The notes under the pieces were generated by a model. The model worked only from the letters and a program-made list of their open reading frames with translations. It had not been told where the DNA came from and ran no database searches. A program made the position numbers and the translations under genes. A DNA stretch of 51,822 bases from Candidatus Heimdallarchaeota archaeon (GTDB lineage: Archaea; Asgardarchaeota; Heimdallarchaeia; Hodarchaeales; Hodarchaeaceae): the NCBI GenBank assembly GCA_019057635.1, contig DXJL01000149.1:1-51822 (forward strand). The letters run 5' to 3'. Numbering within the stretch: position 1 is the first letter of the stretch; every line of letters begins with the position of its first letter. This document shows positions 14,566 through 27,396 of this stretch, in pieces.

Positions 14566-14692
14566 CAAATTGCATACCAGCTGGAAATCTATATACTGAT
14601 GCAGAATTTTCGAGTTTACTATGCGCATATAATTTAAAAACAAAATTCATTCTTTGATAAAGTGGTCAAATACATTTTGGGATAAATGTGCT

Positions 14693-15076
14693 ATGCCATA
14701 CCGTCAACCTTTAGAAAAGTTGCTTGAAGAAAAGAAAGTTCTTGGAGTGGTAATTTTTGACCCTTCCGGCAATGATTGGTGGCATACAGGGTCATTCCCG
14801 CAAGCAAATGACAGACTTTTAGATGGCTACTATTTAATTCACGAATGGTTAACATACCCAGCTTCTGCTGAAATAGCTGGAGTCAAATATCTGACATTAC
14901 TTAATGCGTACCCAGATTACTGGCTTTTGACAAATATGGAGGGCCAGGGATCCTTAATTCTCCAAAAAGCTACTAACGACTTTTATTTTTTCTGTTATCT
15001 AGATGAATCCATTGATCCACCTGACATCCAGAAAGAAGTAAAAGCGATTGCCGAGCTTTTCGCACAAGGCGTCTAA
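14693..15076 (+). CDS. Asgard profilin-like actin-binding protein
   Basis: 127 aa; VVIFDPSG..WW, EW...SAEIAGVKYLTL, LLTNMEGQGSLI pattern of Asgard profilins; C-terminal helix. Confidence 0.75.
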   Translation: MPYRQPLEKLLEEKKVLGVVIFDPSGNDWWHTGSFPQANDRLLDGYYLIHEWLTYPASAEIAGVKYLTLLNAYPDYWLLTNMEGQGSLILQKATNDFYFFCYLDESIDPPDIQKEVKAIAELFAQGV

Positions 15077-15086
15077 GGGATTTATA

Positions 15087-16511
15087 ATGACATCAGGAAA
15101 CGATTATTCGAGTCTAAGCCATATTTTTCGAGCTTATGACGTACGAGGAGTATATAATAAAGAAATCACTGCTGCAGTCCATTATCGGATTGGTCTAGCC
15201 TTCGGAACATTCTTGCAGAGAAATCAAGGATTTCAAACCCAGGATCATTTTGTCTTTATTGCCTGGGATATTCGCCAAACAAGTTCACTATTAGCACAAG
15301 CTTTTGCTGCCGGAGTCATGTCTTCTGGAATACATATTGAGTATTCTGGGGAAGCATTACAATTTGGTGCATGTATGTTTTCAGCTTGGAAACGGAATGC
15401 ATTTGCTACGGCATACATAACTGCTTCTCATCTTCCTCCTGAATGGAATGGGGTCAAATTTTATTATGGTAATGGAGTGGGTTTTTCTGAAGAAGACAAT
15501 ATGAAAATTCGAGACATTTTCATTGAAGGTGATTTTCTTCAACCATCATGGACAGGGGTAGGACAAATGACTCGCTTGAATCTCAAAAATGAGTATCGTG
15601 ACTATTTAAGTACAAAGTTTACACTTAAAAGACCATTAAAAGTTGTTGTCGACTGTGGGAATGGCTCGTCATGTTTGTCAGCTCCTGAAGTCCTAAAATC
15701 TATCGGTCTTGAGGTAATTCCCTTATACTGTGAAGTCGATCCTGCTTTCCCCAATAGGTCTTCTGAACCCAATGAACAAACTTTGACTGAACTATCGAAA
15801 ATTGTTATTGAAGAGAAAGCAGATTTTGGAGTGGGATTCGATGGGGATGGTGATCGTGCTGTTATTGCCGATAATACAGGCCGTGTCTTACTCGCCGATA
15901 TTACAGGTCTGATTCTAGCCAAATATATGCTCTCGATTTTTCCGAAAAAGAAAAGGGTACTAGCGAATGTAGAATGTTCTCTTGCACTAGAAAAATCACT
16001 CCCTGAATCAACAATTGTTGATCGTATTAAAGTAGGCCATACATTCCTAACTGCAGATGCACAGGAAAAGAAGGATACATTAATTGGAATTGAGAGCTCT
16101 GGACATATGGTTTTTCCACATATATACCTATTTGATGATGCAATGATCATTCCTTTGATTTTAGCTGAAATGCTGTCGACAAAAGATACAGGTCTCTCTG
16201 AATTGGTCGACCAACTGCCATTATTGTATAAACGTAGAGTAGCTGTCCCAGCACCCGATAATATCAAATTTAACGCTATTACAAGTCTGTTACAAGAGAT
16301 TAAAGCATCCCATAATTCTGTAACTGACATCGATGGAATTGGTATTTCTTTTGGTGTTGAATCTTGGGTATTAATTCGTGCTAGTAATACTGGACCAAAA
16401 ATTCGCATCACTATAGAGGCAGAATCAGCTAATCAAGCAGACGAATTGCTAGTTAAATATCAAAAGTTATTAAAAGATAAGCTTCAAGAGATTACCTCTG
16501 CAATGGAATGA
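15087..16511 (+). CDS. Phosphomannomutase/phosphoglucomutase
   Basis: IFRAYDVRG, TASHLP (phospho-Ser), FDGDGDR metal loop, IESSGH, LIRASNT. Confidence 0.95.
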   Translation: MTSGNDYSSLSHIFRAYDVRGVYNKEITAAVHYRIGLAFGTFLQRNQGFQTQDHFVFIAWDIRQTSSLLAQAFAAGVMSSGIHIEYSGEALQFGACMFSAWKRNAFATAYITASHLPPEWNGVKFYYGNGVGFSEEDNMKIRDIFIEGDFLQPSWTGVGQMTRLNLKNEYRDYLSTKFTLKRPLKVVVDCGNGSSCLSAPEVLKSIGLEVIPLYCEVDPAFPNRSSEPNEQTLTELSKIVIEEKADFGVGFDGDGDRAVIADNTGRVLLADITGLILAKYMLSIFPKKKRVLANVECSLALEKSLPESTIVDRIKVGHTFLTADAQEKKDTLIGIESSGHMVFPHIYLFDDAMIIPLILAEMLSTKDTGLSELVDQLPLLYKRRVAVPAPDNIKFNAITSLLQEIKASHNSVTDIDGIGISFGVESWVLIRASNTGPKIRITIEAESANQADELLVKYQKLLKDKLQEITSAME

Positions 16512-16512
16512 T

Positions 16513-17220
16513 GTGTTAGAAATGACTGATAAAATCGGTTTAATAGGTGGGACTGGTCCATTAGGACAAGGATTAGCTTTGCGGTGGGGATTAGCAGGTG
16601 AACCTGTCTGGATGGGATCAAGACTGCAGGAAAAAGCGGATAAAATTACTCTTGAGATAAATTCGAAATTAAATAAGCAGATAATCCAGCCTATGACAAA
16701 TAAAGATTGTATTCAAGAAGCAGACATAATTCTGATCACTACTCCATTCAATTTCATGATTAAAACCATAGAACCACTATTACCTTACTTAACGGAGGAA
16801 AAAATCCTTGTAGATGTCACAGTTCCTCTGAAACCGTTTGAAAAGGGAAAAATGGTTGACATTCTTTCGCAAATAGATCTAAAAGCTCAAAGTGCCACGG
16901 AACTCCTCCGAAAAGTTGTTCCTCCCAGCATACCTGTAGTAGGTGCATTTAAAACCCTTTCAAATTTCACTTTAAGAGACATTGACAGATTACCAACCTT
17001 AGATCAGGATGTTTTCATTTTTAGTAAAGATAAAGAAGCTAAAAATAGAGTGAAGGAGAAAGCCCTAAAAATTGAGCATCTACGACCTGTTGACGCTGGA
17101 GGAACGCTTTCAGCAAGACATGTGGAAAGATTCACTACCTTCCTCATTGGTCTCAATCGGAGATATAAAACACATGATTCTGGAATTAAAGTTTCAGGGC
17201 TACCTACTCGGAAATGGTAA
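16513..17220 (+). CDS. npdG: NADPH-dependent F420 reductase
   Basis: IGGTGPLGQGLALRW, GSR, VDVTVPL, VVGAFKTLS, VDAG, LIGLNRRYK. Confidence 0.88.
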   Translation: MLEMTDKIGLIGGTGPLGQGLALRWGLAGEPVWMGSRLQEKADKITLEINSKLNKQIIQPMTNKDCIQEADIILITTPFNFMIKTIEPLLPYLTEEKILVDVTVPLKPFEKGKMVDILSQIDLKAQSATELLRKVVPPSIPVVGAFKTLSNFTLRDIDRLPTLDQDVFIFSKDKEAKNRVKEKALKIEHLRPVDAGGTLSARHVERFTTFLIGLNRRYKTHDSGIKVSGLPTRKW

Positions 17221-17224
17221 TTAC

Positions 17225-18850
17225 TTAAATGCTTTGTTTAAAAGTATCTATTATATGTCTTTGTGATTTAGAGAGATTATAATGGTCAAGAATAAACGCA
17301 TCCATTTGAGTTATTTCCTCATTTCCCAAACATATTTCTCTCTCTATCTTCATTTCTGCTATTTCTTGTTCCTCTAATGCAGAAAATGGTAATTTAATGG
17401 GAAGTTGCTTCAAATAGCTGATAGGTATTTTTGGAAATATTTTCTTTACTGTTTGAAACTTATGGTTAAGATAAAAAGTTAATAACGAAGAGTTTAGTAT
17501 GATTTCTAGATGTTTTAAATTGAAATGAGACCATTGTGGCTTGAAGGTAATTATGTACACATCGCACACACAAAATAGCATGGTTGGATCATAAACTGAT
17601 ATAAGTTCACGACCAATTCTTCGGAGGAGCAATTTTGGTTTCATATACATTGATTTGTCTTTGAAAATTGATTTTCTGTTCGAATCGAATTCAATATATC
17701 GCCTATCTCCTTTTATGGAAAATTTACTGATATTTCTCCCAGCTATCACTGGTACAGACTCCTGTGTAGAAGGTGTTTCGTTAGTGAAGGTTGACTTAAA
17801 TCCTAACTCGATTCCACGCGTAATAGATGCGATATCCTTTAGGAAAAGCGCTCCTGTTTCCATAATCTCAAGAATTTCAGTGATCTCTGTAGCCAGATCA
17901 GGTAAAATGTACCTGAACTTCTGATCCATAATCATTCTTTGGTCATTCATTTTAATCTGAGAGAATCCACCTTCAACTGAATACTTACTGAATTCAATGA
18001 TGTGGGAAAGACCCTTCTCGGCATCAGTTTTCTTATATCCCATTACAATGCATGTTTCAACAGATACTGAAGGAAATACATTGTCATCCAACATGATGAT
18101 TTTATTGATGTTGAGCTGATTGAGTAATAAATCCCTGAATGCTTGATATCGAAAGTTTGTAGTAAAGTTATTCGGAATAAGGAAGATTAACGCTCCTCCT
18201 TCTCGTAATAGATGTATTGACCGTTCAACAAATAGAAGATAACTTTCTATTTCGGGATCAACACCTTCAAAAATTCTTCTATAGATATTTTTCTCTTCAG
18301 AAGTAAATGAAATCCCAAAGGGGGGATTTCCTATACAAATATCATATCCCTCTTTAGTGTTAGGTGCGGACCATTCATAAAACCAATGAAACGCATTTTT
18401 AACTAAATTTATGTCTGGTTGATTAATGTTAAGATCATCGAAGAAATAACGAGTTAATTTTTCTTCTGTATAATAATTCTTCATGGTTTTAGGAGGTTTA
18501 ATATACCCAATTAACGCATTTCCAGTTTTAAACGAAATTTCAATATCCTTACTTGTCGCTAATTTCCTTTTTTTTGACTCACATAAATTAATAGATTCAT
18601 TATTTATATCTAAACCATGCAAAATTAGTTTAAAATTTATTAGATCACTTTCTCTGATGTTGTTCTTTTGTTTCAAAATTTCAAATAAAAATCTACCATC
18701 TCCAACTGAATTATCAAGGATGCTGATACTTCCAGAACCAAGTGGTTGGTTCAGAATGTCGTTAATAAAATCGAGAGAGAGATTGACCATTAATTTTACA
18801 ATTTTTTCTGGTGTTGGGATCGCTCCTAGTGGTTCTTTTCCTTTTTTCAC
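17225..18850 (-). CDS. Eco57I/TaqI-like (gamma class) amino-DNA methyltransferase with TaqI_C-like specificity region
   Basis: Motif I LDNSVGDGRFL, motif IV GNPPF, LFVERSIHLLREGG, KPKLLLRRI, ILNSSLLTFY. Confidence 0.9.
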   Translation of the reverse strand: MKKGKEPLGAIPTPEKIVKLMVNLSLDFINDILNQPLGSGSISILDNSVGDGRFLFEILKQKNNIRESDLINFKLILHGLDINNESINLCESKKRKLATSKDIEISFKTGNALIGYIKPPKTMKNYYTEEKLTRYFFDDLNINQPDINLVKNAFHWFYEWSAPNTKEGYDICIGNPPFGISFTSEEKNIYRRIFEGVDPEIESYLLFVERSIHLLREGGALIFLIPNNFTTNFRYQAFRDLLLNQLNINKIIMLDDNVFPSVSVETCIVMGYKKTDAEKGLSHIIEFSKYSVEGGFSQIKMNDQRMIMDQKFRYILPDLATEITEILEIMETGALFLKDIASITRGIELGFKSTFTNETPSTQESVPVIAGRNISKFSIKGDRRYIEFDSNRKSIFKDKSMYMKPKLLLRRIGRELISVYDPTMLFCVCDVYIITFKPQWSHFNLKHLEIILNSSLLTFYLNHKFQTVKKIFPKIPISYLKQLPIKLPFSALEEQEIAEMKIEREICLGNEEITQMDAFILDHYNLSKSQRHIIDTFKQSI

Positions 18851-18855
18851 CTTCC

Positions 18856-20598
18856 TTATTCCCCCTGCAAAATTATCTGTTTTTCATTTTGAGATAATTC
18901 ATAAAAATTGAAAACAATTTCGTCAATAATGGACCTAACATAATACATCTTTGAATATTTACCATTTATCTCTTCGACGTAAGATTTATTGACTTTAATT
19001 CCTATTTTTTTTTCTAGCCATGGTAAGTCGTCTACATTTCTTGTTCGAAAAAACCTATCGAGCTGCTTTATTAACTTAAAGAGATTCCTTGTATGATTTT
19101 TTTGATTAAAGATTGACTGATTAACCATATTATCTAGTAGTTGTCTTAGCTCTTTCCCTTCCATAAGATACAATTTGAAGATTTCTCCAATCACGAAGAA
19201 TTGGTCTATGTTTGATTCCTGTTTTACAGTAGAACAAATATCAGAGAGCTGACCTATTTCTATCATATTCTTAATTTTGCTACGGAAGTCAGAATTCGAC
19301 TCACCATTCAAACGAGGAATTATCAATTTATTTAAATATGGTTTATCTAAATCTTTACTTGTTACAAATCGTTTAGTATATATTGCATGTTGTAACCACC
19401 AAGTTATAAACTTAGATTGAAGTAAAGCACCATATGCATGAATATAATTGGACGAGGAATAAGGAGGAATTATATTAATAACAGTTTCATGAGTAAGGTG
19501 GACACCAGAGGAATCAACCCAAATTGGAAGATCTAATTGGAATTTTGGTTTGGTTTTATAAGCAATTATGCGTTGTCCAATGATTTTAGGTTGCCTTAAT
19601 CTTTTAAACTTAATTTCAGGAACATTTTCAGTGACATAATTACGTTCTGGTAATAAAAACCCGTGTGTAAGCGAAACTTTTTCTATTAATGGAGTAGATA
19701 CGTCTTTTACACGAAATTGACTACTTAAACCACGAAAAGCAGTCCATTCAATTCTTCTGTGATCTTTCAGAAGCTTTTCCATTAGTTTCTGCTCTGAGGG
19801 AGTTACACCCACTAAAAAATTATCGAAACGAATCGCATTTTGAGTCTTAATCTTGGAGACGAAAACTAATTTCTCTTTCTCAGAATCCCATATCCCAGTT
19901 TGGAATTCTAAAGATGGAGAGATTTTTTGTAGTGTAAGGGCGACTTGCTCTTGCAATTGACCAGAAAATTGATTTGCTAAATCATATACTTCTAAAAGAC
20001 GAACCTGAGTTAGACATAGTTGTCGAAACATTTTCCATTTATTAGAGTAAATAAAAGGTTTAGGTAAAATAAAAGAAAGGATACCCCTGTCTTTTAAGAG
20101 GTTAATTGACTTCAGTACGAAATATAGAGCAGATTCTGACGGAATATTCTCCTGGGTTTCTTTGGGACGCAGCTTTCTTATTTTATCCCACTCTTGTGGA
20201 GAATATTTTGCATGGTGAGGAGGATTAGATATGATTAAATCGTATTTTCTTCCATTATTCTCTGTATCAAATTCAGTCAGAAAATTTTTGAGATGAAAAA
20301 CAACAGTACATGTATCATCATTTACAGAGTTAATCACTAATGATTTAGCTTTTGAGAGCGCAGAAGGGTCAATATCTAAAGCATCGATATTGATAGAACT
20401 AAATCTATTCTTTAATATCTGAATAAGTGTTTTGCAAAAAATTCCTTCTCCAGCTGATGGATCTAACACTAAGAGAGTATCATTATCTCTTGGTTCATCA
20501 AGATAATAGATAATGTTTCCAATTATTGCCTGTACAATGTTTTCAGGTGTAAAATATTGCCCTTTTTCACTCTGAGTACTTGACAAGCTGAGTCCCAA
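18856..20598 (-). CDS. Gamma-class amino-DNA methyltransferase with variant NPPH motif IV
   Basis: GQYFTP, VLDPSAGEGIF, YDLIISNPPH, LLKDRGILSFILP, PKIIGQRI. Confidence 0.88.
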   Translation of the reverse strand: MGLSLSSTQSEKGQYFTPENIVQAIIGNIIYYLDEPRDNDTLLVLDPSAGEGIFCKTLIQILKNRFSSINIDALDIDPSALSKAKSLVINSVNDDTCTVVFHLKNFLTEFDTENNGRKYDLIISNPPHHAKYSPQEWDKIRKLRPKETQENIPSESALYFVLKSINLLKDRGILSFILPKPFIYSNKWKMFRQLCLTQVRLLEVYDLANQFSGQLQEQVALTLQKISPSLEFQTGIWDSEKEKLVFVSKIKTQNAIRFDNFLVGVTPSEQKLMEKLLKDHRRIEWTAFRGLSSQFRVKDVSTPLIEKVSLTHGFLLPERNYVTENVPEIKFKRLRQPKIIGQRIIAYKTKPKFQLDLPIWVDSSGVHLTHETVINIIPPYSSSNYIHAYGALLQSKFITWWLQHAIYTKRFVTSKDLDKPYLNKLIIPRLNGESNSDFRSKIKNMIEIGQLSDICSTVKQESNIDQFFVIGEIFKLYLMEGKELRQLLDNMVNQSIFNQKNHTRNLFKLIKQLDRFFRTRNVDDLPWLEKKIGIKVNKSYVEEINGKYSKMYYVRSIIDEIVFNFYELSQNEKQIILQGE

Positions 20599-20613
20599 AA
20601 ATCGTATTTTTCG

Positions 20614-22578
20614 CTAGGAGCTGAGATTTAACATAGCTTTAATTTTCTTCGCAGTGAAAGTCTTACCAGTAAGTACATTGCCACTCATTATAATAAGACG
20701 ATGTTTGTTTTTCCTTATTCTTAATAGTAAATCCTTCAGTATCTCATCGTAATCGTCTGATCTCGTGGATAACTCAACCACTTGACTACTACTAGGAACA
20801 CGAAGGGAATTCATATATGAATCTATTAAACTTTCATAACGGTTATAAATTATGATATCTGCATCACTTTTAGTAAGAGATTGCTCTTCTTGACTCCTAG
20901 CATCGAAATTCAATTTGAGATCAATTTTTGATGTACTAGTATGTAGGAATATTGGATTAAAAGCTCTAAATTTCTTAATTAATGTCTCCCTATGAGTTGG
21001 ATGTGATGGAGAGTTAAGATTAGTTCCGTCAAAAATCACAATATTGGATTTATTACGACGAAGAAGGCAAGATACCAGCCATATTGCGAGAAGATATGTA
21101 TGAGCACTTTCCCATGAAGAATAATCATGTAGATTTTCACGGTATAACTTTCGAACATGATCGGTTGAAATGATAGTAACCCTCGGACTTTTAGATGAGG
21201 TGCATAGGCTTAAAACTTTTTTAATATTGTCGAGAATTGTATATAGCTCTTTTTTAGAATTGAATGACGGTTTCACTTCCACTTGTTCTCGTAACAAATC
21301 CAAACAGATACCTATAAATTCACGTTGAGCAGATTTTGTTTTGTTAATATTTAAATGGGTAACGACCTCAGTTCCATCAATTTTTACATCCTTGAGATAA
21401 GTTGGTCTTTGGGATTCACTCCTTCTTCTTATATCAGCAAACAATGCATCATTAGGGAGGGGTTTGTTTCCAAGAATTTTCCCCTTAGCATGGTGAAATA
21501 GTAAGAAATCTTCAAGGAATTTAGGGGCAATGCCATAGAGTAACCGCCTTATCAAATAATTCTTGTATTCCTCCTTATTATCATCGAGAGAATATGGTAA
21601 AGGGATTTTATGAATTGATATTAGATGTATTATCTCATCTATGCGCTTGTTTGGAAATTTAAGCCTTTTGAGAATACGAGTTAAGAAATTTTTATTTAGA
21701 TCTGGAAGGAGGAAGGATGAATTAGAAGGGATGGCAGATAACTGATGAAAAAGAACAGAATATCGGAGATTTATTGATGATTCATTAGTTAAATCATCTA
21801 AAATACGCAAAGTAATCTCAAAACGAGATAAATTTATTGAAGGTAGAATATTCTGCATTAATTCATCTTTATATTCAGGTATTAGATGTTTCAGAAGATT
21901 GGTGGAATTTAGAGATCGAATTGCTTGCAGCCAATATAGCCCACCCATTAATTTATGAAATTCGGTTTCAATTCGCTCTTTTGAAATTTGGTCAAAGATG
22001 TGTAAATGCCTTGGTACCGCAGCAAGGGATGATTCCTCAACAGAATATCCTAATTGAGAAACAAATCTGAATATTCTGATTAATCTGAGGCCATCTTCCT
22101 CTAAACGAGCATCAGGGTCACCAACCAAACGTAAAATTTTATTAACAATATCAGAACGTCCATTGTAAGGATCTGTAAAAAATTCAGTAATGGGATCATA
22201 TGCAATTGCATTAATTGTGAGATCACGTCGAGCAAGATCCTCTTCAATATCAGTTACAAATTGAACATGGGATGGACGACGACCATCTTCATATTCCCCT
22301 TCGACCCGAAAAGTTGTAATCTCTATTGAAAGATTTTTAAATAGAAGAGTAACCGTTCCGTGTTGTATACCAGTTGGAATTACCTTGAATTTCTTAAATA
22401 ACTCCATAACTTCAGATGGAGATGCGTCTGTTGCAATATCCCAGTCATTTGGTTGAATTTCACCTCTTAGAAGATCACGAATTGACCCGCCAACAATAAA
22501 TGCCTTATATCCTACGGAAGAAAATTTGTGACAAACCTCAAGAATTTCTGCAGGAAAGTGACTTGCGGTGAATTCCAT
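20614..22578 (-). CDS. cca: Class II CCA tRNA nucleotidyltransferase fused to a C-terminal P-loop kinase-like domain
   Basis: VGGSIRD, DWDIAT (DxD), EITTFR, flexible loop YEDGRRP, RRDLTINA, EDGLRLIR (EDxxR), SKERI; Walker A GNVLTGKT at the C-terminus. Confidence 0.88.
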   Translation of the reverse strand: MEFTASHFPAEILEVCHKFSSVGYKAFIVGGSIRDLLRGEIQPNDWDIATDASPSEVMELFKKFKVIPTGIQHGTVTLLFKNLSIEITTFRVEGEYEDGRRPSHVQFVTDIEEDLARRDLTINAIAYDPITEFFTDPYNGRSDIVNKILRLVGDPDARLEEDGLRLIRIFRFVSQLGYSVEESSLAAVPRHLHIFDQISKERIETEFHKLMGGLYWLQAIRSLNSTNLLKHLIPEYKDELMQNILPSINLSRFEITLRILDDLTNESSINLRYSVLFHQLSAIPSNSSFLLPDLNKNFLTRILKRLKFPNKRIDEIIHLISIHKIPLPYSLDDNKEEYKNYLIRRLLYGIAPKFLEDFLLFHHAKGKILGNKPLPNDALFADIRRRSESQRPTYLKDVKIDGTEVVTHLNINKTKSAQREFIGICLDLLREQVEVKPSFNSKKELYTILDNIKKVLSLCTSSKSPRVTIISTDHVRKLYRENLHDYSSWESAHTYLLAIWLVSCLLRRNKSNIVIFDGTNLNSPSHPTHRETLIKKFRAFNPIFLHTSTSKIDLKLNFDARSQEEQSLTKSDADIIIYNRYESLIDSYMNSLRVPSSSQVVELSTRSDDYDEILKDLLLRIRKNKHRLIIMSGNVLTGKTFTAKKIKAMLNLSS

Positions 22579-22675
22579 GGTCAGACCTCATCTGTATACT
22601 TTCGAATTGAGGAAAAGGACTATTAAAAGCTATAATATCTTCCATTGATTAACTAAACTTTCTGAGAGATGATAT

Positions 22676-25297
22676 TTGCAACAGCTATCTCAAAACCTAA
22701 AAGAGCTTTATGTATTACTTCTTCAAGAAGGACGCTTCCTAAATTGGTCGGATGCAGTCACCTTTGAGGTAGCTTTAAATTCACTTATTAAATTCCTCTC
22801 CTTATTTTATTACCAACCATGGAACAAAATCGTAGAAGAGCCATTTTCTTCATTGAAAAAGACAGAAAAAAGGATGATTTTTCTCGAAAAATTTTTTCAT
22901 TCATTTGAGTATTCTGCAGGTGGAAATGAAAAGCAGGCTGTAGAGAAATCAATATTTTATCTATCAGCTCCTACACCGAAAGAAAAACAACTACTAAAAA
23001 GTATTCCAGGTGAAGATTGGAATCAAGTGATTAATCTTCTAGAGACTTATACATTCAACTCTGTGGAAAAATTCCAAGAGTCTACTAACCAAGAGGGTGA
23101 AATAACCCCTGAATTTCTTTCATTCTTTGCAGAAATTGTCATAAATGAATTTGAAAAAGATTTTTCAGTTTCACCTAAAGTATCAAGTCGAAAAACAAAA
23201 GGAGTATACTATTCACCTTGGAAAATCATCAGAGAATTGGCCGATAATCTCATATCTGATGACAGAACTCAGGTAACGGTTTTAGACCCTAGTTGTGGGA
23301 CTGGTTCATTTTTACTTTATACGACAGAAAGAATTTATCAAAATCAACAGAAATACGAAGGCAATTATGAAGATAATCCATCAAACATCGTCAAAAACTT
23401 CATTTACGGTGTAGATAAATCAAGTTCGGGTATATTAGTTACAAAATTAAGATTACTTCTCTGGATTTTAGGTAAAGATCCCGAATCAAATTTAGATACT
23501 GAAACACATATTTTTTCAAATATTCGAGAGGGAAACTCACTTTTTGGCTTTATTAATGAAAAATTTAATCCGACTATTGATTTAATTAATTATTTATCCC
23601 AGAATATTCAGAAAATAGGGGTAAAGAGTTCCAAACTTGTTGAAATGGAAAAGTATCTGAATAAAGATTGGGTTATTTGCTGTGACATACTCAAATCTGT
23701 TTTAACAGAGAGAGATTTCGTAATTAGAGCAAATATCGATTCTTTAATGGAACAGGTAAATAAAGATCTTTCAAAGATATTTAATAATGCATACGTTCAA
23801 TTTTTATCAACCTTAACGAACCAAACTATGAATTTGAAGTCCCTATATAATACAAAAGTAACCCAACTTGAATTTTTTCATTGGGGATTGATGTTTCCCG
23901 AGATTCTGAGACAAGGTGGATTTGATATTTGCTTGGGTAATCCTCCATATGGTCGTTCAATCCTTTCAGTGACTGAGAAAAATATCTTGAAGGCGTCCTA
24001 CAGTTCATGTAAGGGCTCTAACGCGAAAAAAATTAGTTTAAATGCAGCTGGGGCATTTATTGAACGTTCAATAAAACTCCTTAAACCAGAAGGTCGTTTG
24101 GCATTTATTCTCCCATTTTCAATCCTTAGGGTTGAAGAATTTGAAAGAATTCGTGATTATATTCTAGAAAAAACCGTGATAGACGAAATTCACGATGAAT
24201 CTGCAGCATTTCAAACTGTAACACTAGAGATGTGTTCATTAATCTTAACCAAACAACAAAAAAACGACTATCCGATTTTTATTAAACCTAGAAAGGGTTT
24301 AAAACTAGTATCACAGGTAAATAAATCGGTTTTTATGAACTACAAACGGTTTATGATATATTATGACACAAATTGGCAGATAATTACTCGAAATGGGGAA
24401 TTTTCTCAAATAATGGGAGATTATGGAGTAGATCATAGGATTGTTAAGAAAGATTTGAAACGGAATTACACTCCTTCCATGGAATATGTAGTTCCTTTTC
24501 TTCATTCAGGAAGATGTGTCACTCGTTATGCACTGAATCCTAATTATTTTCATTGGTCAAAATCGAATCATAAGAATCCTAGATTTATCGACTATCTTGA
24601 GAAACCTAAACTTGTTTGTACTGCAATTGGTAACGAGTTTCGGGTAGCTTACAAACCTAGGGGAATCGTACCAGGAACAAATGTCTCAATAATGGAAATT
24701 TCAAACCCTCAACATGATTTCTTTCCTCTAATGATTATACTCAATTCTTCTCTAATTAATTATTTATTAAAACGATATATATTGAATTATTCTCATCTAA
24801 CGGTCTATCTACACAAATATTATACACAATTAATACCAATAAAATATCCATGGTCTTATGAAAAGGAATGGAGAATAATTGGGACCTATATATCCTTGTT
24901 GAATCAGATACAACAATTGAACCTTGGACTCTCCTACCAGAAAGAATTGAAATTTTTGGGAGAAATTACAGAGCACATGGTTTACCATTTATATCTTCCA
25001 GAAATTTATACAGATTCAAAATTGACGTTAACATCCATACTTCAGGATTCCCTTCTTGAAATCCAATTTGAGGATTGTATTGAGGCACTCTTATCCCCAA
25101 CTAGCGATATTGAGGAGATTATAAAGGAAAAAAATTCTGATGTAATGATAGCTGAAGCAAGAATACTGGCTGTCATTAGTACATTGAAAACTGAATCAAT
25201 TCTTAATATCCTCTCTCAATCCAAGCAACTAAGAGAAAAATCGGGAATAACGAAAAAAATACTCCTTGATACAACACCAAAGATGATTCGAACATAA
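22676..25297 (+). CDS. Eco57I-like amino-DNA methyltransferase (no recognisable nuclease domain)
   Basis: GVYYSP, VLDPSCGTGSFL, IYGVD, FFHWGLMFPEI..GGFDICLGNPPY, ILNSSLINY. Confidence 0.9.
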   Translation: MQQLSQNLKELYVLLLQEGRFLNWSDAVTFEVALNSLIKFLSLFYYQPWNKIVEEPFSSLKKTEKRMIFLEKFFHSFEYSAGGNEKQAVEKSIFYLSAPTPKEKQLLKSIPGEDWNQVINLLETYTFNSVEKFQESTNQEGEITPEFLSFFAEIVINEFEKDFSVSPKVSSRKTKGVYYSPWKIIRELADNLISDDRTQVTVLDPSCGTGSFLLYTTERIYQNQQKYEGNYEDNPSNIVKNFIYGVDKSSSGILVTKLRLLLWILGKDPESNLDTETHIFSNIREGNSLFGFINEKFNPTIDLINYLSQNIQKIGVKSSKLVEMEKYLNKDWVICCDILKSVLTERDFVIRANIDSLMEQVNKDLSKIFNNAYVQFLSTLTNQTMNLKSLYNTKVTQLEFFHWGLMFPEILRQGGFDICLGNPPYGRSILSVTEKNILKASYSSCKGSNAKKISLNAAGAFIERSIKLLKPEGRLAFILPFSILRVEEFERIRDYILEKTVIDEIHDESAAFQTVTLEMCSLILTKQQKNDYPIFIKPRKGLKLVSQVNKSVFMNYKRFMIYYDTNWQIITRNGEFSQIMGDYGVDHRIVKKDLKRNYTPSMEYVVPFLHSGRCVTRYALNPNYFHWSKSNHKNPRFIDYLEKPKLVCTAIGNEFRVAYKPRGIVPGTNVSIMEISNPQHDFFPLMIILNSSLINYLLKRYILNYSHLTVYLHKYYTQLIPIKYPWSYEKEWRIIGTYISLLNQIQQLNLGLSYQKELKFLGEITEHMVYHLYLPEIYTDSKLTLTSILQDSLLEIQFEDCIEALLSPTSDIEEIIKEKNSDVMIAEARILAVISTLKTESILNILSQSKQLREKSGITKKILLDTTPKMIRT

Positions 25298-25412
25298 ATT
25301 ATGATCTATTTGACCTATAGACAAGTTCAATATTTCTTTCTTGATGTATTTCTATCTTTTACCCATTCATTTACCTTCACCGACTAAAAGGACTGATTTG
25401 GTAAAACTGGGA

Positions 25413-25470
25413 TAATACGTGAGTAATACGAAAAATAATACGTCAATTTAGGTAATCTCCCATTTAGGTA
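25413..25470. repeat. Short direct repeats: TAATACG x3 and ATTTAGGTA x2
   Basis: TAATACG at 25413, 25424, 25436; ATTTAGGTA at 25446 and 25462. Confidence 0.55.
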
Positions 25471-25571
25471 GACCTGCGGCAAGAATCTAAGAAATATTTA
25501 TAAAGTTAAACATTTAGTATAATTGTCACTCAGTTTTTTATCTTTAGAAATTAGTACAAAGAGGCTAACGG

Positions 25572-25739
25572 ATGCAAGACCCAATTGATGGTGCACAACT
25601 CCTCAAGGGATTAACGCAAGAAATGACTGATTCTCAGAAATCGATTATCACACAATTAGTTCAGGGTCAAAATGTTTTTTCTAAATATTCAATTTCTGAC
25701 GCTCTAACTGAACTTGATGATCTTTTTGATTCAAAATAA
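25572..25739 (+). CDS. Small acidic hypothetical protein (55 aa)
   Basis: GAGG SD at 25561, then ATG; MQDPIDGAQLLKGLTQEMTDSQKSIITQLVQGQNVFSKYSISDALTELDDLFDSK; below the ORF track cutoff. Confidence 0.5.
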   Translation: MQDPIDGAQLLKGLTQEMTDSQKSIITQLVQGQNVFSKYSISDALTELDDLFDSK

Positions 25740-25933
25740 TTGATTGGTTGAAGTGTAAATCACGCATAATATCTGTACACAACTTGTGTCGTTCTTCCTC
25801 ATTTCTTGATGATGACATATTACCAGAACTCGAAATTCAGAGTAACAAACCCATGACTGAATTTATAGATTATGGGTGATATTTGAAATCGTCATATTTG
25901 GATAAGTGAATAGTCTGTAGGCGGCCCTTTTCA

Positions 25934-26115
25934 ACTCTCATTAACCTTATCTGCCGTTCTGAAAGACTTACCCAAATAAGACAGCTAAGAATAATGATTC
26001 CCAACCATCTTTGGAGCTATTCTTCCTGATTCATAGACGCATGCCTGCTTAGATGCAGGTCTTACCGCCTCTCCACAGGCGTTTAAGGTCTCCGCGGAAC
26101 TCTCGGCGACCTGAT
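25934..26115 (-). ncRNA. Putative TnpB omega-RNA (reRNA) scaffold plus flanking guide
   Basis: GCCGAGAGTTCCGCGGAGACCTTAAACGCCTGTGGAGAGGCGGTAAGACC...ATGAATCAGGAA resembles conserved tnpB 3' ends; hairpin CCTGC-N6-GCAGG; locally GC-rich. Confidence 0.6.
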
Positions 26116-26421: not shown

Positions 26422-27396
26422 GTGAGTCAAGATATTATTGATGCATATCAAAGAATAAAGGATTATGTAAATAAAACACCTGTTATGACATCTCGTACTC
26501 TTAATGAACTCATCTCAGCTCATATTTACGTTAAATGCGAGAATTATCAGCGAATAGGCGCATTTAAAGCTCGTGGAGCTTTTAATGCTATTAAACAACT
26601 CATAGAAGACTCACATCCTGCTGGAGTGATAACTCATTCATCAGGTAATCATGCTCAGGCTGTTGCTTTAGCTGCACGTGAATTAGGAGTGAAAGCATTA
26701 ATAATTATGCCTAAAAACGCCCCTCTTGTTAAAAAAGCGGCTACTAGAGGATATGGTGCGACAATTATTGAATGTGGAAATTCCCCAACAGATCGTGTAG
26801 TAAAAACCAAAGAAGTAGTTGAAAAATATGGGTATCCGCTTGTTCACCCTTACAATGATTACAAGATAATCCATGGGGCAGGTACAGCTGCTTATGAACT
26901 TTTAACCGAAGTAGGGAAACTAGATTATGTATTAGCACCTGTAGGAGGTGGAGGATTACTCAGTGGAACTTCAATATGTGTCAAATCTCTATTTCCAGAT
27001 ACAATTGTTATCGGCGTCGAACCACTAAATGCTAATGATGCATACCTCTCATTTAAGGATGGAACAAAAATATACCCATCTATAAACCCTAAAACTATCG
27101 CTGATGGGTTACGTACTAATTTGGGAGATATCACATTTAAAACTATAAAAGAAAACGTAGATGATATAATTACAGTGTCAGAAAAACAAATTATTTCCGC
27201 TATGAAGTTTCTTTGGGAAAGAATGAAGATAGTAGTTGAACCATCTGGAGCTGTTCCCTTAGCAGGATTATTTCGTCTTGCAAATGAAGAATCGAACTAC
27301 AAAATCAAAAATAAGAAAATTGGTTTGATTATTTCGGGAGGGAATATCGATTTAACTGATTTTTTTAACACATTATCAAGTTTAATTGCAGAATGA
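26422..27396 (+). CDS. PLP-dependent serine/threonine dehydratase (serine racemase-like, no ACT domain)
   Basis: KCENYQRIGAFKARGA, SSGNHAQ, VGGGGLLSG, VEPSGA, ISGGN. Confidence 0.93.
   Translation: MSQDIIDAYQRIKDYVNKTPVMTSRTLNELISAHIYVKCENYQRIGAFKARGAFNAIKQLIEDSHPAGVITHSSGNHAQAVALAARELGVKALIIMPKNAPLVKKAATRGYGATIIECGNSPTDRVVKTKEVVEKYGYPLVHPYNDYKIIHGAGTAAYELLTEVGKLDYVLAPVGGGGLLSGTSICVKSLFPDTIVIGVEPLNANDAYLSFKDGTKIYPSINPKTIADGLRTNLGDITFKTIKENVDDIITVSEKQIISAMKFLWERMKIVVEPSGAVPLAGLFRLANEESNYKIKNKKIGLIISGGNIDLTDFFNTLSSLIAE

Follow-up and report, generated by a model that had tools for sequence, protein, structure and literature searches.

A class II CCA-adding enzyme of Hodarchaeales joined to a predicted, circularly permuted P-loop kinase domain

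Introduction

Can a P-loop kinase domain carry at the very end of its chain the strand–Walker A–helix unit with which such domains normally begin, and what would it do when joined to the enzyme that builds the 3′ end of tRNA? These questions are raised by an open reading frame of 654 amino acids (P0001; 20614..22578, minus strand) on contig DXJL01000149.1 of a Candidatus Heimdallarchaeota archaeon genome (order Hodarchaeales, Asgard archaea; assembly GCA_019057635.1); the whole stretch of 51,822 nucleotides that was analysed is called the window. The frame encodes a class II CCA-adding enzyme followed by what appears to be a circularly permuted P-loop kinase domain, a group of kinases (AAA_33) that includes PSTK, KTI12, T4 Pnk and bacterial Pnkp, and 6PF2K. 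A preliminary description of the window had quoted the motifs STDHVRK, FDGTN and SDAD, followed only then by Walker A, and had read them as a clean circular permutation of a kinase of the AAA_33/PNK/PSTK/KTI12 type; the motifs are indeed present in that order and where it had located them. Here, we compare this domain with its homologs and unpermuted relatives, its predicted fold with solved structures, and its gene neighborhood among related genomes. The best explanation overall, which we regard as on balance probable, is a permuted AAA_33 kinase on a CCA enzyme with tRNA as the likely substrate of phosphorylation.

Results

Judged by its motifs, the region from about residue 466 to 654 of P0001 is a P-loop kinase domain of the AAA_33 group. 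All its parts lie on the minus strand. The kinase body, as delimited by hhalign and VIA-align (residues 466-624; 20707..21183), comprises strand 2 with STDHVRK (residues 471-477; 21148-21168), strand 3 with FDGTN (residues 516-520; 21019-21033), strand 4, a lid with R561 and SDAD (residues 571-574; 20857-20868), strand 5 and the last helix, and it includes the sequence HPTHR at residues 526-530. The canonical order, in which strand 1, Walker A and helix 1 come first, is not found. Instead, this unit makes up residues 625-654 (20617..20706), past the last helix, where a strand RLIIMS (residues 627-632) leads into the Walker A sequence GNVLTGKT (residues 633-640; 20659-20682). The displaced unit is recognized by an invariant SGNVLxGK, by its match to the N-terminal unit of the relatives and by DSSP assignments. 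Between Walker A and the stop there are 14 residues in P0001 and 10-25 in all full-length homologs.

A search with residues 445-654 gave 32 proteins including P0001, with expectation values (E) of 2.3e-128 to 6.4e-52. Apart from P0001, 29 are 649-685 amino acids long and two are partial, and the named members are all from Asgard archaea, labeled Hodarchaeales or Hodarchaeota, Heimdallarchaeota, Promethearchaeota and, in one case, Thorarchaeota. The family alignment covers 31 of the 32 proteins at 39-73% identity, the partial protein P0003 of 599 amino acids having been left out. In these 31 homologs S632, G633, N634, V635, L636, G638 and K639 are invariant in and next to Walker A, as are D473, R476, F516, D517, T519, N520, R530, R561, S571 and A573 in the kinase body. 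These columns contain the motifs of AAA_33/PNK-PSTK-KTI12-like kinases: Walker A GxxxxGK[ST] (G633-T640); [ST]-D-x-x-R after strand 2 (D473, R476), aligned with the same motif of the 17 canonical relatives described below; a Walker B-like D-x-T-N at the end of strand 3 (D517, T519, N520), aligned with FDATN of these relatives; and a lid arginine with S-D-A (R561, S571, A573), where the canonical set is equally invariant (R141, S155 and A157 of the relative P0048). It is quite likely that this domain has kinase or NTPase activity.

Because the permutation splits the match, the kinase domain escapes standard domain scans. The sole hint in the Pfam scan of P0001 is to 6PF2K (E 0.012), with the last 31 residues on profile positions 9-39, the Walker A region. 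Among 10 homologs scanned with AAA_33, one (P0022) passes and one matches weakly; P0022 scores 31.1 bits against a cut-off of 27; its residues 463-580 cover profile positions 21-135 of 143, and the Walker A part is left out of the match. In the Pfam scans 6PF2K and AAA_33 are the only kinase models matched by family proteins, and one homolog is named “AAA family ATPase” by NCBI. Automatic annotation thus sometimes detects the kinase domain, though not its permutation.

The order of the pieces was compared with that of unpermuted relatives. A profile built from 15 sequences of only the C-terminal domain (alignment A3, comprising the window plus the 14 loci described below) was searched against 1.84 billion representative proteins and gave 25 matches at E ≤ 0.001. 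Of these, eight belong to the family, whole or as fragments, and the other 17 are proteins of 145-250 amino acids (E 7.9e-7 to 7e-4). All 10 of these relatives that were scanned match Pfam AAA_33 (E 5e-28 to 1.5e-14), with secondary matches to KTI12, 6PF2K and Zeta_toxin. Profile positions ~22-150 fall on residues ~45-180 of the 17 relatives, after 20-50 N-terminal residues of their own. When HMMER was re-run, 13 of the 17 showed two pieces in swapped order, profile positions 181-206 on residues ~28-52 and ~22-150 on ~53-175; in P0048, for example, positions 181-206 fall on residues 29-54 and positions 24-142 on residues 57-170. The four relatives without a two-piece swapped match include an N-terminal fragment.

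Moving the Walker A unit to the front in silico, which the preliminary description had put forward as a check, restores the canonical match. With columns 181-206 rotated ahead of 21-180, the profile matches all 17 relatives in one uninterrupted piece, and the mean best-domain score rises from 33.5 bits in the native order to 48.9-51.8 bits. With control cuts at columns 66, 95 and 120, the number of relatives matched in one piece is 0, 0 and 2 of 17, respectively. A cut at column 150 reaches a score similar to that of the true one, since little of the score comes from strand 5 and the last helix. The same result is obtained by profile–profile comparison with an alignment of the 17 canonical relatives (A4). 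In the native order, hhalign aligns 144 columns, query 22-181 on template 51-196 (Prob 99.3, E 6.9e-21), and in a second run 143 columns (E 3.5e-21, score 134). The rotated order gives E 6.2e-32 and a score of 199 over 164 columns, with query 4-183 of 185 matched to template 28-193 of 219, compared to 81-129 columns and scores of 115-157 for the control rotations. The swapped pieces, together with the P0022 match that lacks Walker A, imply a kinase of the AAA_33 type in which the first beta-alpha unit has become the last, with a clean junction. We regard the permutation and its fusion to the CCA enzyme as almost certainly real, and the permutation is a natural one, fixed and under purifying selection in one clade of Hodarchaeales. 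No tandem or unpermuted kinase on a CCA enzyme was found among the 32 family proteins (359-1145 amino acids searched) or the 25 profile matches. Against PDB sequences the A3 profile gives only sub-threshold matches (E 0.15-0.71), on the Walker A piece.

The fold was predicted with AlphaFold2 for residues 445-654, using a 31-row alignment (A2); model numbering starts at residue 445. The model has a mean predicted local distance difference test (pLDDT) score of 82.3 and a predicted template modeling score of 0.81, and the block of the last 40 residues has pLDDT 83-94. After the helix of the CCA tail it contains a strand (23-27), helices 28-35 and 44-64, a strand (69-73), helix 85-92, a strand (98-103), helices 107-118, 127-143 and 145-148, a strand (155-159), helix 166-179 and, at the C-terminus, a strand assigned by DSSP (184-189), the Walker A loop and helix 195-208, with five strands overall. 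In a VIA-align comparison with 48,161 representative chains the top match is PSTK (3a4l_A; Z 8.7, root mean square deviation 2.7 Å, 135 aligned residues), in which model residues 21-181 fall on chain residues 33-171. The next rows are 6PF2K, the putative kinase 2rhm, chloramphenicol phosphotransferase, adenylate kinase, Kti12 and PezT, and further ones include the Pnkp kinase 4gp6, gluconate kinases, PPK2, T4 Pnk and the Trl1 kinase; going by the titles, P-loop kinases make up at least 40 of the 50 rows. The fold matches are confined to model residues 21-181. In single-domain rows the model matches over ~21-181 and the aligned chain starts at ~23-40, just past the Walker A–helix unit of the target, which is the offset predicted by a permutation. 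Profiles, profile–profile alignment and fold comparison support the clean permutation that had been suggested. A complex prediction (A3 15-178 with A3 179-210, ATP and Mg) scored 0.84 compared to 0.68 for a control and is not used as evidence.

Residues 1 to ~458 are, by sequence comparison, a CCA-adding (tRNA nucleotidyltransferase) module of the Bacillus type of class II, with conserved catalytic motifs, so the fusion to a CCA enzyme stands as first described. The head or catalytic domain (residues 26-150; 22129..22503, minus strand) matches Pfam PolyA_pol (PF01743; E 2.4e-34) and is present in all 30 family proteins of at least 599 amino acids. The neck (residues 177-238; 21865..22050, minus strand) matches PolyA_pol_RNAbd (E 7.2e-10). 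The body and tail (residues 239-458; 21205..21864, minus strand) are assigned from tRNA_NucTran2_2 matches, mostly weak and seen in 8 of 10 scanned homologs, and from the secondary structure of the model, in which the tail closes with a helix at residues 446-460. The sequences GGSIRD (residues 30-35), DWD (45-47) and RRD (117-119), and EDGLR (161-165) just past the head, are what we take to be the class II motifs; GGSIRD, DxD, RRD and EDGLR recur in at least 90% of the 31 sequences in alignment A1. P0001 matches the NCBIfam CCA tRNA nucleotidyltransferase model PRK13299 over residues 13-242 only (E 8.7e-77), and its 258.8 bits fall short of the equivalog cut-off of 290 bits. The best solved relatives of the module are 6ibp from Planococcus and the Bacillus-type 1miv (E 5.6e-51 and 2.1e-48 in the PDB). 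Five motifs, A to E, are described for class II CCA enzymes (10.64898/2026.05.29.728689). In the draft genome ARAGORN finds 14 tRNA genes, of which 5 end in CCA; the count is rough and misses intron-containing genes, and it implies that CCA addition is needed in the host. The window itself has no tRNA gene by ARAGORN and no Rfam match at the gathering score.

When one genome was scanned for each of 185,579 species, the fusion turned up at 14 loci, of which two are on complete chromosomes. In a set of 83 genomes from the class, the kinase-domain profile matches at E ≤ 1.4e-72 in 17 of the 22 genomes of the genus-level group to which the window belongs and in none of the other 61; six of the latter have weak matches (E 6e-5 to 8e-4), mostly to canonical kinases of ~170-200 amino acids. 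Contigs from metagenome runs of other studies span Walker A, the stop and the start of the next gene without a joint (X2, 20545-20705; X3, 20482-20632 and 20664-20817). The same architecture in independent contigs and loci excludes a mis-assembly, and the assembly rearrangement that would have undone the preliminary description can be set aside. We also considered a longer kinase gene truncated by the methyltransferase gene that follows and rejected it, since all homologs stop at the same place.

The source genome, which is 91.6% complete, has two class II CCA genes, the fused gene of 654 amino acids and a short one of 387 amino acids on another contig (contig C163 of the source genome, G000; locus L002, 1405-2568, plus strand). 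The two copies share 32% identity over head and neck. The loop before motif B reads GHPPK in the short copy and DGRRPS in the long form. A further open reading frame overlaps the 3′ end of the short gene by 4 nucleotides, and a frame of 243 amino acids precedes it. The class I CCA enzyme domain (PF09249) was not found in the source genome, whereas four archaeal controls were positive. Likewise, Tpt1/KptA (PF01885) and the Clp1 P-loop domain (PF16575) were not found in this 91.6% complete genome, in which RtcB is present.

The fused gene is embedded in a conserved cluster of methyltransferase-like genes, assigned here by Pfam. The gene of the first downstream partner starts 15 nucleotides past the stop of the CCA-kinase gene and encodes a 580-amino-acid Eco57I/N6_Mtase-like protein with an NPPH motif (18856..20598, minus strand). 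After a gap of 5 nucleotides follows the second partner, 541 amino acids with Eco57I/N6_Mtase and TaqI_C (17225..18850, minus strand). A divergent gene on the other side (22676..25297, plus strand) encodes 873 amino acids, again with Eco57I/N6_Mtase and TaqI_C. The three are paralogous methyltransferases of the S-adenosylmethionine type, with motif I and NPP[YFH] visible in their translations. Synteny was compared in the window and the 14 loci and counted only where the contig reaches. The divergent gene (~800-870 amino acids) is upstream in 14 of 14 loci, and a same-strand gene of ~530-610 amino acids is directly downstream in 13 of 13; a third gene of ~540 amino acids is found in 6 loci and another gene instead in 6. 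Genes beyond the cluster vary between sub-lineages. Of the order's 24 genomes, 15 have an ortholog of the 580-amino-acid protein, at 34-88% identity and in each case beside the fusion, and none of the 7 genomes without the fusion has one; in the two fusion genomes that lack the ortholog the fusion gene is on short contigs. The family is itself clade-specific, with ~50 orthologs at E ≤ 1.5e-74 and then a gap to generic matches at E ~1e-11 (21% query coverage). These genomes are kin, and the counts of synteny and co-occurrence overstate their independence. Nevertheless, the gene order persists at identities as low as 34% although the flanking genes change, which speaks for a functional link. The cluster methyltransferases match type II/IIG, MADS mad2 and BREX PglX models far below the curated cut-offs. 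The CCA-kinase itself matches no defence model in PADLOC. Conserved synteny of this kind is unusual for restriction-modification methylases. The G+C content of positions 18001-26000 of the window is 0.319-0.339, slightly under most of the window (0.34-0.395). The cluster is bordered at 14654-17220 and 26422-27396 by ordinary metabolic genes, for phosphoglucomutase-like, F420/NADP oxidoreductase-like and pyridoxal phosphate-dependent enzymes.

Other Heimdallarchaeia have canonical AAA_33 kinases of ~190 amino acids, in a conserved arrangement with overlapping frames (L026 1535-6037, L027 3445-7973, L029 3545-8074, L028 1118-4744 and L030 3390-4905). In four of these five loci a gene for a HerA-like (DUF87) ATPase of ~990-1007 amino acids lies upstream, and in four a conserved protein of ~329 amino acids without a Pfam match is encoded downstream. 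The gene context of the canonical kinases in these five loci gave no clue to a substrate.

Discussion

The results suggest how the fused enzyme could work. The kinase domain would fold as the usual five-stranded core, with the C-terminal strand in a central position. By analogy with the family, ATP-Mg would be bound through G633-T640, with K639 and T640, and through D517; D473 would activate an acceptor hydroxyl, to which the gamma-phosphate would be transferred; and R476, R530 and R561 would hold the phosphate or phosphates of the substrate or transition state. The roles of these catalytic residues are known from work on T4 Pnk, Pnkp and PSTK. The substrate would most likely be a tRNA, or a broken or immature tRNA, on the CCA module. 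One protein would then couple a phosphorylation step to the building of the 3′ end, and, as the conserved operon suggests, it may do so together with the neighboring N6-methyltransferase-like proteins.

That the domain is an RNA- or tRNA-directed phosphotransferase appears reasonably probable from comparative analysis, and is the most likely function because the relatives are nearest to PSTK and Pnkp, the best fold match is PSTK and the fusion partner binds tRNA. For the canonical relatives P0048 and P0043, the curated families that come closest are PSTK (E 3e-13 and 1e-12) and bacterial Pnkp (E 1.7e-7 and 2.4e-10), all below the cut-offs, and the kinase domain is covalently joined to a tRNA-binding enzyme in all members of the family. 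The preliminary description had proposed a combined 5′-healing and 3′-CCA repair enzyme, or a nucleotide sensor, a proposal that draws on family resemblance and on the fusion itself. A 5′-OH end as target, as in that proposal, would be compatible with a genome that has RtcB and in which no Clp1-type kinase and no Tpt1 were found. An archaeal precedent for internal phosphorylation of tRNA is 2′-phosphouridine 47, made by an unrelated kinase (PMC9095486).

Several observations weigh against parts of this interpretation. P0001 has no AAA_33 match at E ≤ 10 and so stays below the gathering cut-off of PF13671; its C-terminal 210 residues match no Pfam or NCBIfam family significantly and reach no kinase model. 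Foldseek finds nothing in the PDB at E ≤ 0.001, a null result that is expected, as the aligner is order-dependent and the domain permuted, and that is evidence neither way. The VIA-align Z scores of 7-9 are middling by the scale of the tool itself, and the placement of the C-terminal strand in the center of the sheet is deduced from DSSP strand calls and confidence values of the model. In complexes of class II enzymes with tRNA, the tail domain contacts the elbow of the tRNA, a long way from its 5′ and 3′ ends. From this geometry, a domain hung on the tail would be badly placed for healing a 5′ end in cis; real alternatives are a target within the tRNA core, a reaction in trans or within a dimer, and a KTI12-like tRNA-dependent ATPase. 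The AAA_33 group also includes small-molecule kinases, and matches to gluconate, shikimate and adenosine 5′-phosphosulfate (APS) kinases were seen. The conserved partners resemble DNA methyltransferases. A short class II copy, a paralog of ~385-410 amino acids with an open frame of 373-414, is present in 17 of 17 fusion genomes; among the 24 genomes of the order, one further genome has the short form only, one has a fragment and five have no PF01743 match. The fused copy may thus differ from the CCA enzyme assayed in the preprint discussed below and may have another substrate. With a short paralog at hand in every fusion genome, the role of the fused enzyme may be a specialized one, in repair, quality control or on a special substrate, and not housekeeping.

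Of the rival explanations, the one that survives best, although we consider it fairly unlikely, is that the domain is a KTI12-like tRNA-stimulated NTPase or ATP sensor, which would regulate or proofread the CCA module through substrate choice or gating of release, with no phosphorylation of RNA. Kti12 is among the structural matches (6qp0_A, Z 7.1), the Pfam KTI12 model matches the canonical relatives at E 1e-8 to 1e-13, KTI12 and kinases have the same active-site motifs, and a position past the tail, away from the tRNA ends, would suit a sensor. However, the aspartate of STDHxRK, the activator of the acceptor hydroxyl in PNK and PSTK, is invariant together with three arginines, and the curated families closest to the canonical relatives are true kinases.

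The gene neighborhood allows a different view, which we hold to be improbable: the CCA-kinase and its two or three Eco57I/TaqI-like methyltransferases could form a clade-specific module for nucleic-acid modification or conflict, acting on DNA, or on tRNA in virus–host conflict, and not in the everyday maturation of tRNA. The cluster is kept wherever the contig allows while the outer genes vary, the clade-specific 580-amino-acid partner co-occurs with the fusion down to 34% identity, the partners match the MTase_II/IIG, mad2 and PglX models, and the short CCA paralog could be the housekeeping enzyme. Against such a module, the CCA-kinase lacks any PADLOC match, Pfam reveals no nuclease or other defence gene in the cluster, restriction-modification genes are rarely syntenic throughout a clade, and co-occurrence among kin genomes is not independent.

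It is distinctly improbable that the domain phosphorylates small molecules or nucleotides (a nucleoside, a nucleotide or a sugar acid, for example) and was fused for local supply or regulation. Gluconate, shikimate, APS, adenylate and dephospho-CoA kinases are among the fold matches (Z 5.4-7.1), and small-molecule kinases also appear among the weak NCBIfam matches of the relatives, but PSTK and Pnkp rank first among the curated families of these relatives, the domain has no nucleoside monophosphate-binding or other extra substrate domain, and the pair of D-x-T-N and S-T-D-x-x-R is typical of the PNK/PSTK/KTI12/6PF2K group. Finally, a mis-assembly or a dead remnant, in which a kinase body without P-loop is followed by the stray P-loop of a lost second copy, is conceivable in that the architecture would arise by tandem duplication and subsequent loss of the outer parts, and P0001 does lie below the Pfam thresholds, but it is extremely improbable given the same architecture in 31 proteins from independent assemblies, 14 species loci, 17 genomes and two complete chromosomes, the contigs of other studies across the gene end, the invariance of all catalytic motifs and the confidently modeled C-terminal unit.

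For the permuted AAA_33 kinase on the CCA enzyme, it is possible, and we suggest it only tentatively, that the fused enzyme and its methyltransferase-like neighbors act in one pathway. Going further, the locus could hold the first natural circularly permuted P-loop kinase at the heart of a three- to four-gene module of CCA enzyme, kinase and N6-adenine methyltransferases, specific to Hodarchaeales and acting on tRNA or tRNA-like RNA; this we think unlikely. If true, it would be a new pathway of RNA end repair or modification in the archaeal lineage nearest to eukaryotes, for example one in which phosphorylation of broken tRNA, or of a site in or close to the tRNA elbow, is coupled to rebuilding of the 3′ end and base methylation. 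Being strictly linked to methyltransferase-like genes specific to the clade, the fusion gene suggests a pathway not yet described, and the fusion joins a phosphoryl-transfer module to the builder of the tRNA 3′ end in Hodarchaeales, where a bacterial-type CCA enzyme is reported to have replaced the archaeal one. Regarding the domain itself, this clean case with identifiable unpermuted relatives suggests that the central strand–P-loop–helix unit can come from the far end of the chain, which bears on how P-loop enzymes were built up of beta-alpha units and may be of use in protein engineering.

In the literature searched, a 2026 preprint by Cassidy et al. (10.64898/2026.05.29.728689) is the only paper on these enzymes, and it covers the same gene family and clade. 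Its main text reports that Hodarchaeales have only class II CCA enzymes and no class I, with which our genome searches agree, that some of their genomes have paralogs A and B, and that one Hodarchaeum class II enzyme, whose paralog is not named there, adds CCA in vitro. Its trees were made from the catalytic core with the variable C-termini trimmed, which set the kinase domain aside, and the terms kinase, P-loop, permut, fusion and AAA appear nowhere in that main text. Natural circular permutation is described in P-loop GTPase domains (PMC1262696, PMC6912228) and in methylases (PMC10853773, PMC7824862). The literature searched describes no naturally permuted P-loop kinase, of the AAA_33 group or otherwise, and no fusion of a CCA enzyme and a kinase, in keeping with the remark of the preliminary description that it knew of no such example. 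The circularly permuted GTPases (YlqF/RsgA/Lsg1; TRAFAC) differ in class, motif order (G4-G5-G1-G2-G3) and function and are likened to the present domain by analogy only, as this domain matches kinases in sequence and fold.

Among comparable enzymes, the E. coli-type multifunctional CCA protein (PRK10885) is a precedent for a class II CCA enzyme with a second end-repair activity. Its extra activity is that of an HD-domain phosphohydrolase and not of a kinase, and P0001 matches PRK10885 in head and neck only (residues 25-238; E 5.6e-20), far below the cut-off. PSTK (3a4l; TIGR03574) is a tRNA-directed P-loop kinase, with Ser-tRNA(Sec) as substrate, and is both the best fold match and the best curated family of the canonical relatives. 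It has the normal order and adds a C-terminal tRNA-binding domain, whereas the domain described here ends 14 residues past Walker A; TIGR03574 gives no match in the C-terminal 210 residues of P0001, and the resemblance is one of fold only. KTI12 (6qp0; PF08433) likewise has the P-loop fold and a link to tRNA (Z 7.1) in the normal order; it is an ATPase that partners Elongator and has a tRNA-binding domain at its C-terminus. The 5′-OH polynucleotide kinases (T4 Pnk 1ltq/1ly1, Pnkp 4gp6/4xrp, Trl1 9r3w/6u03, PNKP 3zvl) share fold and motifs (Z 5.4-7.0) and act in the healing of RNA or DNA ends; they have the normal order and are fused to phosphatase and/or ligase modules, whereas the kinase here is fused to a CCA enzyme. 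The Pnkp/Hen1 system also includes a methyltransferase; Hen1 is a 2′-O-methyltransferase, unlike the N6-type neighbors of the CCA-kinase. By sequence, the kinase domain is no PSTK, KTI12 or Pnkp according to any curated model. Its closest counterparts are the canonical stand-alone AAA_33 (PF13671) kinases P0041-P0057 of ~190-215 amino acids, with which all motifs align from Walker A through the final strand and helix (hhalign Prob 99.3-99.9), apart from a four-residue insertion after FDGTN in the fusion family. One cluster member among them is named as a hypothetical protein of Dehalococcoidia and another as a “predicted kinase”. They are single-domain putative kinases, and their strand–Walker A–helix unit comes first, whereas in the fusion family it comes last. 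The kinase domain descends from AAA_33 kinases and probably works as they do, but departs from their N-terminal Walker A order, which is its new feature.

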